Shown piece after piece: positions 4,013 to 4,345 of a DNA stretch of 14,368 nt. Below the pieces are notes generated by a model that searched no databases, had not been told where the DNA came from, and worked only from the letters and a program-made list of their open reading frames with translations. A program made the position numbers and the translations under genes. Numbering within the stretch: position 1 is the stretch's first letter; every line of letters begins with the position of its first letter. Origin of the DNA: a virus; UHGV virus genome UHGV-0068104. One strand, given 5' to 3'.

Positions 4013-4345
4013 ATGAAAATGAAAAGAAATCTTCCGTTAATTATTTTGTTGTCTTCTCTGGTTATGGGCTGTACGCAACATAAAACAGATATGCCCCGAC
4101 AGTTGGTTAAGGCATTACCACAATATCCGGCCTATGCAGCGGCAAATTATATAAAGGGACGGGTTGATGTGAAGTTTGATATTGGTGCTGATGGTACTGT
4201 CACCCGAATTGAGTTTATCCGTTCAGAGCCGCACCATTTGTTTGATGAGCAGGTTGTAAAGGCGATGGCAAAATGGCGATTTGAGAAGGACAGGCCGTGT
4301 AAAGGCGTGAAGAAAACGTTTATCTTTAGTCCTTCTGCACCCTGA
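4013..4345 (+). CDS. Lipoprotein with TonB C-terminal-like domain (phage moron)
   Basis: MKMKRNLPLIILLSSLVMGC = signal peptide with lipobox Cys; remainder YPAYAAANYIKGRVDVKFDIGADGTVTRIEFIRSEPHHLFDEQVVKAMAKWRFE aligns by eye to the E. coli TonB C-terminal domain (YPARAQALRIEGQVKVKFDV..DGRV..V.I....P...F...V..AM..WRYE). Start at ATG 4013 (ORF track begins at GTG 4004); AT-richer than flanking phage genes. Confidence 0.8.
   Translation: MKMKRNLPLIILLSSLVMGCTQHKTDMPRQLVKALPQYPAYAAANYIKGRVDVKFDIGADGTVTRIEFIRSEPHHLFDEQVVKAMAKWRFEKDRPCKGVKKTFIFSPSAP

Follow-up and report, generated by a model that had tools for sequence, protein, structure and literature searches.

A phage-borne lipoprotein built from the TonB C-terminal domain: a candidate competitor for TonB boxes in lambdoid prophages

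Llp and Cor, outer-membrane lipoproteins encoded by phages, act from the periplasmic side to disable a TonB-dependent transporter, and TonB and Llp compete for the same face of FhuA (bioRxiv 10.64898/2026.03.26.714494). TonB-dependent processes can also be inhibited by pieces of the system itself: according to PMC9841981, an overproduced periplasmic TonB domain inhibits TonB-dependent iron import (citing Howard 2001), and a TonB-box pentapeptide lowers colicin killing and phi80 infection. Here we analyse a stretch of 14,368 nucleotides of the virus genome UHGV-0068104 (the window, by which we mean that whole stretch), which is the late region of a lambdoid prophage, and in it a small gene encoding a predicted lipoprotein that carries TonB's C-terminal domain (CTD). 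A decoy function is plausible and has indirect support: we give a probability of roughly 0.45 to the best-supported reading, that this lipoprotein competes for TonB boxes as a non-energised binder, produced while the receptors are derepressed, and so damps the TonB-dependent entry of phages, colicins and microcins.

The presence of a TonB CTD, which a preliminary description made from the sequence alone had proposed, was borne out by profile and structure comparisons alike. The match to Pfam TonB_C (PF03544) reached E=1.3e-14 (54.8 bits, cut-off 24.6) and that to TIGR01352 E=1.1e-14 (54.5 bits, cut-off 27.1), and phmmer aligned residues 28-106 of the 110-residue form, without gaps, with E. coli TonB 153-231 (E ~6e-16). 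PF03544 was matched by all 16 aligned family members, and no other Pfam family was. In the AlphaFold2 model the predicted local distance difference test (pLDDT) is 94-98 across the domain; it is low at residues 1-25 of the 110-residue form, as expected for a signal peptide and tether. Foldseek placed the model on 1u07, 2gsk_B, 1xx3, 8rd6 and 2grx_C with a root-mean-square deviation (rmsd) of 0.8-1.6 A (0.8-1.1 A for 1u07, 2gsk_B and 2grx_C) and a probability of 1.00, the best structural matches including TonB bound to BtuB (2gsk_B, TM 0.91) and to FhuA (2grx_C). The significant structural matches were all of TonB type, TolA domains being much weaker ones (E of at least 0.1). The transmembrane anchor and the Pro-rich spacer of TonB are absent, as had also been noted: the full-length TonB equivalogs (NCBIfam NF008080-NF008084) gave 49-74 bits against cut-offs of 265-448, and aligned over their last 66-84 profile positions only.

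The open reading frame reported in the preliminary description is real and has an in-frame ATG at 4013, from which it encodes 110 residues, not the 111 first given. The likely start is nevertheless the second ATG, at 4019, which yields 108 residues, since the PGAP annotation places the start there, and since a related allele (72% amino acid identity) has ATA at codon 4013 and keeps both the second ATG and its Shine-Dalgarno sequence, GGGA in one allele and AGGA in the other. The N-terminus reads MKRN-LPLIILLSSLVMG-C, the lipoprotein signal being MKRNLPLIILLSSLVMG/CT, so that the signal peptide and lipobox Cys announced earlier are indeed found. Of the 16 sequences in the family alignment, 14 keep this Cys, and all 14 have Thr, Ser or Ala, never Asp, at +2. 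Under the Lol sorting rule, a lipoprotein whose +2 residue is not Asp goes to the outer membrane; with Thr at +2, the TonB-CTD lipoprotein is predicted to be sorted there. The mature protein would consist of a TonB CTD on a tether of 7 residues, TQHKTDM, after the lipid-modified Cys (7-14 residues across the family), and this short tether, together with the non-Asp +2 residue, is predicted to place the domain at the outer membrane.

The best PHROG match of the protein is phrog_1267 (E=5.7e-43), labelled 'Rz-like spanin' in the category lysis. A lysis accessory or spanin-like role would suit a gene that lies downstream of Rz/Rz1 and whose product, like the o-spanin Rz1, is a predicted outer-membrane lipoprotein, but we consider it very improbable. 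The lysis cassette upstream of the gene is already complete, with an Rz/Rz1 pair in the window; the fold is that of the TonB CTD and not of a Pro-rich o-spanin; the gene is missing from sibling phages whose lysis genes are the same; and lysis genes are absent from the neighbourhood of its chromosomal homologues. Given the fold, the intact Rz/Rz1 pair and the absence from sibling phages, the phrog_1267 label is wrong, and it will spread into phage annotations.

The C-terminus is where the lipoprotein and TonB part in a way that bears on competition for TonB boxes. In the FhuA and BtuB complexes, TonB strand 226-231 pairs with the TonB box, and free E. coli TonB has an extra C-terminal strand that must be exchanged for the TonB box (PMC6118199; PMC11658791). 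The lipoprotein retains the pairing strand, as KTFIFS, with only PSAP left before the stop codon, and so lacks the C-terminal strand that covers it in free E. coli TonB. Since KTFIFS is kept and the protein stops four residues later, its pairing edge should, going by the model, be open at all times, and we infer that the lipoprotein is a putative TonB-box binder acting by beta-augmentation.

The rest of the domain was compared over the 17 family sequences of the alignment, in TonB numbering. Y163, F202 and W213 are invariant (17/17), P164 and F230 are each found in 16/17, position 180 carries Phe or Tyr, and 13/17 sequences have Phe at 215. This conserved core, with its aromatic positions and YP motif, supports a decoy role, as do the presence of the pairing strand and the absence of the masking one. 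The signature that sets the family apart from enterobacterial TonB comprises the lipobox, a C-terminus too short for the last strand of TonB, and a set of derived residues: Tyr166 (15/17), Asn170 (13/17), Gly183 (15/17), Ser196 (17/17), Asp203 (13/17), Asp204 (12/17, Glu in the window protein) and Lys226 (11/17). At the position of Q160 the window protein has Leu; TonB Q160L is functional and suppresses TonB-box mutants (PMC11658791).

Upstream of the gene, the homologues have a common layout of -10, operator, Shine-Dalgarno sequence and ATG. In the window the extended -10 is accompanied by a weak -35-like ATGACC (3959-3964). It is invariant across 80 viral contigs, and ATTGTyAGAATAAGAC is the sole block that the 72% allele conserves in its upstream DNA, which has otherwise diverged. 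The earlier claim that the gene has promoter signals of its own is only partly confirmed: the extended -10 is conserved between alleles, but a generic promoter scan performed at chance level (3 sites against 2.5 expected). A perfect 8-1-8 palindrome over the -10 and the start-site region, identical in 69 of the 80 viral contigs, is a candidate operator; its right arm is missing from the phage-21-type allele. Considered as a Fur 7-1-7 site, the palindrome was set aside, because merely 8 of 14 positions match by eye.

Fur boxes mark the promoters of the divergent homologues. There, the best match to the Fur consensus of the whole locus (loci of ~10-16 kb) falls immediately after the -10, 23-64 nt upstream of the start codon, with the scores listed in Table 1. 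Six such loci, together 90 kb, hold 10 positions that reach 15/19, and the locus maxima at that score are all at these promoters; the listed runner-up matches are copies shifted by 6 nt, and the only further site listed, in the Sodalis locus near 9670, is a 16/19 pair. As the pattern recurs in five independent lineages, the family of TonB-CTD lipoproteins is very likely under Fur control, as are tonB, exbBD and the transporters, and these predicted boxes tie it to the iron/TonB regulon. In the window, a weak Fur-box-like site stands at the homologous position and overlaps the palindrome. Its score of 13/19 is reached at 8 of 14350 window positions, and Fur control of the window copy is possible.

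From these elements a mechanism can be proposed. After Lol sorting, the domain would lie at the inner face of the outer membrane, beside the TonB-dependent transporters, and there, like TonB, it would use beta-augmentation to bind exposed TonB boxes, whether these belong to transporters or to group B colicins on their way in. Being unable to pull, it would compete with TonB. The irreversible adsorption or DNA entry of T1/phi80-type phages would be damped, and likewise the import of colicins and microcins, at the cost of reduced siderophore and B12 uptake. In the ancestral cassette, Fur control would keep the amount of protein in step with that of the derepressed receptors. The copies in E. coli phages are probably expressed in lysogens from the conserved extended -10 promoter, and in the lytic cycle by late transcription under Q antitermination. 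Inhibitors of this kind have been used in the laboratory, the TonB-box pentapeptide work being reportedly that of Tuckman and Osburne (1992) and the periplasmic TonB fragments that of Howard et al. (2001).

The same Fur boxes also feed the main rival of this reading, a possible though somewhat unlikely one, in which the protein is an accessory factor of the iron/TonB regulon with no defensive role. It would bind a transporter, a periplasmic binding protein or another outer-membrane partner, and tune or assist TonB-dependent uptake, for example by keeping unloaded transporters aside and so leaving the scarce TonB to loaded ones, or by recognising a substrate directly like the TonB paralogue FusB; phages would carry the gene as a fitness factor for lysogens under iron limitation. 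Besides the strong Fur boxes on the promoters of the chromosomal and Sodalis-prophage homologues, such a role draws on the conserved synteny in Klebsiella and Raoultella chromosomes, on the core-genome context in Serratia, and on the conserved surface specific to the family and unlike TonB. Moreover, TonB-like CTDs do evolve other ligands, and FusB with ferredoxin (PDB 9hi3, 7zc8) is among the structural matches. However, having no link to the inner membrane, the lipoprotein cannot energise anything; in no locus examined is a transporter or iron-uptake gene adjacent; the patchy, accessory, phage-borne spread is more typical of competition or defence genes; and the Fur box is weakened or lost in the E. 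coli phage alleles.

Several observations weigh against competition for TonB boxes. Of the TonB residues implicated in contact with the TonB box or the receptor, R158, Q160 and Q162 are variable in the family, and R166 is replaced by Tyr in 15/17 sequences; the family's own conserved signature (Y166, N170, G183, S196, D203/D204, K226) could mean a different partner. A physiological role in iron transport would account for the chromosomal, Fur-regulated, non-prophage copies at least as readily as a defensive one, and a competitor of TonB produced constitutively while iron is scarce would be costly. At the window copy there is just the weak 13/19 Fur-like site, and at the phage 21 allele none (10/19). 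PADLOC-DB 2.0 holds no defence model for the protein, the search returning a chance-level match only (E=0.023). Finally, in JLK-2012, a carrier of the window allele, the C-terminus of the tail-tip protein J is lambda-like and no cor gene is annotated. Exclusion of phages using the carrier's own receptor, after the logic of Cor, is therefore not obvious and was set aside; exclusion, if any, would be aimed at other phages or colicins.

The gene is common in E. coli (counts refer to 5426 complete genomes). The window allele, annotated 'TonB family protein', is present in 415/5426 genomes, with up to 4 copies each, and also in Stx1a-converting phages, in JLK-2012 and in Lys8385Vzw. The second, 72% identical allele is present in 1225/5426 genomes, as well as in phage 21, ev017 and Perceval. 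Homologues in Klebsiella phage ST13-OXA48phi12.4 (40%) and in a Sodalis prophage (49%) occupy the same post-lysis slot. Searching viral contigs for related loci gave near-identical copies only; an exhaustive HMMER search gave many single-domain, lipobox-bearing relatives of 107-133 residues, from Salmonella enterica, the Klebsiella pneumoniae complex, Gibbsiella, Rahnella, Erwinia and Pantoea, all named merely 'TonB family protein'.

The family is not confined to phages, chromosomal copies being found in conserved, non-prophage contexts in Klebsiella, Raoultella, Serratia and Erwinia. Those of Klebsiella and Raoultella lie downstream of lacI, beside a glycine-zipper lipoprotein; the Serratia grimesii copy lies between ycgN and dsbB, and phage genes are absent near the Erwinia typographi copy. 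In the Klebsiella/Raoultella trio downstream of lacI (L007:6939-7857; also L088, L089, L091, L092 and L094), the homologue is the last gene, and the other two encode a protein of 136-138 residues of no known family and a glycine-zipper (Rick_17kDa_Anti) protein of 142 residues.

Between the two E. coli alleles the ratio of nonsynonymous to synonymous divergence (dN/dS) is 0.12 at a dS of ~1.45, as for a lipoprotein under purifying selection. The gene is thus not a decaying, functionless fragment of a captured tonB, a view that annotations in phage records ('TonB fragment', 'partial tonB-like membrane protein') might encourage. Its identity to E. coli TonB, merely ~39%, is not that of a recent fragment, the gained lipoprotein signal is conserved across genera, intact copies are found in the 415 and 1225 genomes counted above, and the promoter element is conserved. 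The frameshifted or altered C-termini of some phage-21-type relatives would fit decay; these variants (P0010, P0012, P0013, P0017-P0021) diverge abruptly after about residue 90 or are extended, which is consistent with frameshifts in the last-strand region of some prophage copies, or with assembly errors. We judge that the data on selection and conservation effectively refute the fragment view, whose probability is minimal. The patchy accessory distribution, with repeated capture into the post-lysis slot (phage 21, Stx1a phages, the Klebsiella phage, the Sodalis prophage), supports a decoy.

The cassette comprises promoter region, gene and 3' spacer. Near-identical 9-bp direct repeats flank it, AACCGGACG at 3863-3871 and AACCGAACG at 4467-4475. 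In phage vB_EcoS-569R3 (L005), whose flanks are 94-99% identical, the cassette is exactly absent and one AACCGAACG stands at the junction (blastn). Since the empty site holds a single copy of the repeat, gain or loss mediated by microhomology is suggested. In the Stx1 phages L003 and L004, blastn found other sequence in place of window 3872-4466. A block of ~180 bp just to the left (window 3690-3870) is 94-96% conserved in sibling phages with or without the cassette; it contains no convincing open reading frame, has no Rfam match, and its RNA fold is not unusual (z=-0.43).

By three criteria, presence or absence, composition and a probable promoter, the gene is a moron, though one without a terminator of its own: the terminator search found none downstream of it, and the RNA fold of 4340-4480 has z=0.10. 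The preliminary description was right that it is richer in AT than its neighbours, the GC content being 0.42 in the cassette (0.434 in the coding sequence) against 0.489 in the left flank and 0.569 in the right, with the minimum of the window, 0.40, at 3901-4200. It was also right to place the gene in the moron slot between lysis and packaging: holin, lysozyme, Rz, Rz1 and KilA-N genes lie before it and YlcI/YnfO, HNH and terminase genes after it. Sibling phages lack the cassette. The gene stands ahead of HK97-type packaging genes in the window, and of Nu1-type ones in L006 and phage 21.

In phage 21 the second allele adjoins bor, before cos. This neighbourhood invites the idea of an envelope or virulence lipoprotein like Bor/Iss or Pal, whose TonB-like fold would hold peptidoglycan or abundant outer-membrane proteins, and which would improve the serum or stress resistance of the lysogen and leave TonB-dependent transport unaffected. 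The slot is the same as that of bor, and the product is a predicted outer-membrane lipoprotein of similar size. The C-terminus of TonB itself reportedly cross-links to OmpA and Lpp, and binding to peptidoglycan is said to have been proposed (Higgs 2002; Kaserer 2008). We nevertheless find this role improbable. With its 7 residues the tether falls short of the peptidoglycan layer, Fur regulation of the homologues points to iron and TonB and not to general envelope integrity, and the protein has no similarity to Bor, Pal or OmpA-type domains, Pfam giving TonB_C only.

Competition for the binding sites of a force transducer also finds a parallel in a second prophage lipoprotein. The E. coli AR_0013 prophage (L001) carries, besides an identical copy of the window gene, a gene for a 142-residue lipoprotein (5414-5842, + strand, lipobox LTTG/C), annotated 'TolA'. 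TolA domain III makes up the final 89 residues of this protein (Pfam TolA, E=3.8e-23; match to E. coli TolA 333-421, E=8e-27), and the gene lies after Q and tRNAs, in the slot used for stx in Stx phages. Related copies are present in 897/5426 E. coli genomes and in phage mEp460_ev081. Like the TonB-CTD lipoprotein, the TolA-III lipoprotein joins a signal peptide and a lipobox Cys to the C-terminal head of a periplasmic force transducer; it differs in its longer linker (~35 residues), its slot and its TolA head. The same prophage also has a full-length ompC porin gene (L001:3062-4144, - strand) between the antiterminator gene quuD and the tRNAs, an envelope-remodelling cargo.

TolA domain III is a hub for group A colicins and filamentous phages. 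Together, the two heads fit the logic of decoys, aimed at colicins of group B (TonB) and of group A (TolA) and at the phages making use of the two hubs, and the recasting of both heads as prophage lipoproteins argues that the design was selected. This parallel, the Fur boxes in five independent homologue lineages and the dN/dS of 0.12 support a decoy. A wider generalisation is doubtful, and we offer it only tentatively: temperate phages of Enterobacterales would carry lipid-anchored, energy-uncoupled TonB and TolA heads as decoys on the inner face of the outer membrane that intercept the TonB boxes or TolA-binding motifs on which the import of colicins, microcins and phages depends, giving lysogens a broad, receptor-independent tolerance, the ancestral amount of protein being set by Fur. 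On this view, up to roughly 30% of complete E. coli genomes would contain such a decoy.

The remaining features of the window are those of a lambdoid late region (Table 1). The KilA-N gene lies before the cassette and a convergent YlcI/YnfO gene immediately to its right, followed by genes for an HNH endonuclease, the small and large terminase subunits, a protease-capsid fusion, the portal and head-tail proteins. A 27-bp tandem repeat (2 copies, 85% match, 5817-5870) lies within the small terminase gene, and an open reading frame of 299 residues between the portal and head-tail connector genes (11169-12068, + strand) has an internal duplication, DDVRPMLEQMVKEAVSHIPVPRDGRDYDPDVLQQAVNDAV being present twice. 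Rfam, at gathering thresholds, and ARAGORN gave no matches in the window.

Table 1. Coordinates of features in the window, and matches to the Fur consensus at the promoters of homologous loci.
Feature	Location	Strand	Remarks
Moron cassette (promoter region, gene, 3' spacer)	3872-4466		595 bp; bounded by 9-bp near-repeat
Coding sequence of TonB-CTD lipoprotein	4019-4345	+	108 residues + stop; likely start
Shine-Dalgarno GGGA for ATG 4019	4009-4012	+	AGGA in 72% allele
Predicted signal peptide and lipobox LVMG/C	4019-4072	+	Cys18 at 4070-4072, Thr at +2
TonB C-terminal domain	4094-4342	+	residues 26-108 = E. coli TonB 153-235
Strand KTFIFS (TonB 226-231, pairs with TonB box)	4313-4330	+	alignment; model strand E96-106
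Extended -10 TGTTAGAAT	3978-3986	+	promoter scan
Perfect 8-1-8 palindrome AGAATAAG-A-CTTATTCT	3982-3998		over -10 and start-site region; candidate operator
Weak Fur-box-like site AATAAGACTTATTCTTATC	3984-4002		13/19 to GATAATGATAATCATTATC; homologous position to strong Fur boxes
Fur match, Sodalis prophage			17/19
Fur match, Serratia			17/19
Fur match, Erwinia			16/19
Fur match, Klebsiella and Raoultella			15-16/19; TGATAATTATTATCA in two Klebsiella and one Raoultella locus
Fur match, second Raoultella copy			14/19
Fur match, Klebsiella phage			12/19
Fur match, phage 21 allele			10/19
Strong Fur boxes of homologues (Sodalis prophage; Serratia, Erwinia, Klebsiella and Raoultella chromosomes), each the best of its locus and overlapping the promoter	L097:7962-7980, L096:7928-7946, L098:1609-1627, L007:7976-7994, L088:7972-7990, L090:6736-6754		14-17/19
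Q-type antiterminator	369-857		
Holin	1383-1706		
Lysozyme	1690-2166		
Rz i-spanin	2163-2600	+	Pfam Phage_lysis E=1.9e-36
Rz1 o-spanin, embedded in Rz	2356-2547		lipoprotein open reading frame
KilA-N gene	2802-3323		before cassette
YlcI/YnfO (DUF3950) gene	4477-4737	-	convergent, immediately right of cassette

The existence of the gene is not new, its annotation going back to the O157 genomes (as 'partial tonB-like membrane protein'). The authors of the preliminary description were not aware of a characterised exclusion system working in this way, and our literature search likewise found none described; it found no paper on a phage or lipoprotein TonB CTD, or on a prophage TolA-like protein. 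Within the literature searched, what is new is a proposed function, the link to Fur and the parallel with TolA.

If the lipoprotein does act as a decoy, it would be a natural dominant-negative TonB, and a new route by which prophages, and some chromosomes, shut the TonB-dependent import exploited by T1/phi80-type phages, group B colicins, siderophore-microcins and siderophore-antibiotic conjugates; its target would be the TonB box in general, not any one receptor. As the gene is common, and as both the classical phage 21 and Stx1a phages from pathogenic E. coli have it, a phenotype would bear on host range in phage therapy, on colicin and microcin ecology in the gut and on susceptibility to Trojan-horse antibiotics. 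If the protein instead serves iron uptake, the family would be an undescribed member of the iron-starvation regulon.

Among known systems, the nearest in structure is TonB itself (E. coli P02929, CTD 150-239), with which the lipoprotein shares the fold, its ~39% identity extending over ~80 ungapped residues, and the YP motif, the aromatic positions and the pairing strand 226-231. It differs in having a lipoprotein signal in place of the N-terminal anchor and Pro-rich spacer, and hence no coupling to ExbBD and the proton-motive force, in ending 4 residues past the pairing strand, with the final strand missing, and in the substitutions R166Tyr, L170Asn, R204 to an acidic residue and V226Lys found in its family, position 160 being variable. 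FusB and HasB likewise have a TonB-type CTD diverged for a particular partner (PMC7593965), but are full-length energy transducers anchored in the inner membrane.

The morons Bor/Iss and Lom resemble the gene in encoding envelope proteins from small cassettes in the same late-region slots, bor being its neighbour in phage 21 and lom being present in JLK-2012; their folds are unrelated, as are their proposed activities (serum resistance, adhesion). The engineered periplasmic TonB fragments and the TonB-box pentapeptide come closer in action, an uncoupled head or its ligand competitively inhibiting iron import, colicin killing and phi80 infection (PMC9841981); they are soluble laboratory constructs used at high dose, whereas the phage gene is natural and diverged, has its own regulation, and encodes a product predicted to be lipid-anchored.

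Llp of T5 and Cor of phi80, N15, HK022 and mEp167 are, like the product of this gene, small outer-membrane lipoproteins made by phages. They inactivate FhuA from the periplasmic side, Llp binding the face also occupied by TonB. Their sequences and folds are unrelated to that of the lipoprotein, whose sole Pfam match is TonB_C and whose model had no match at E<=0.001 in the BFVD viral structure library. Furthermore, they are specific to FhuA, act allosterically and exclude phages that use the carrier's receptor, while the expected target of a TonB head is the generic TonB box. On balance, we rate the gene as a candidate member of two known kinds, the phage outer-membrane lipoproteins that disable TonB-dependent transporters and the dominant-negative TonB heads.

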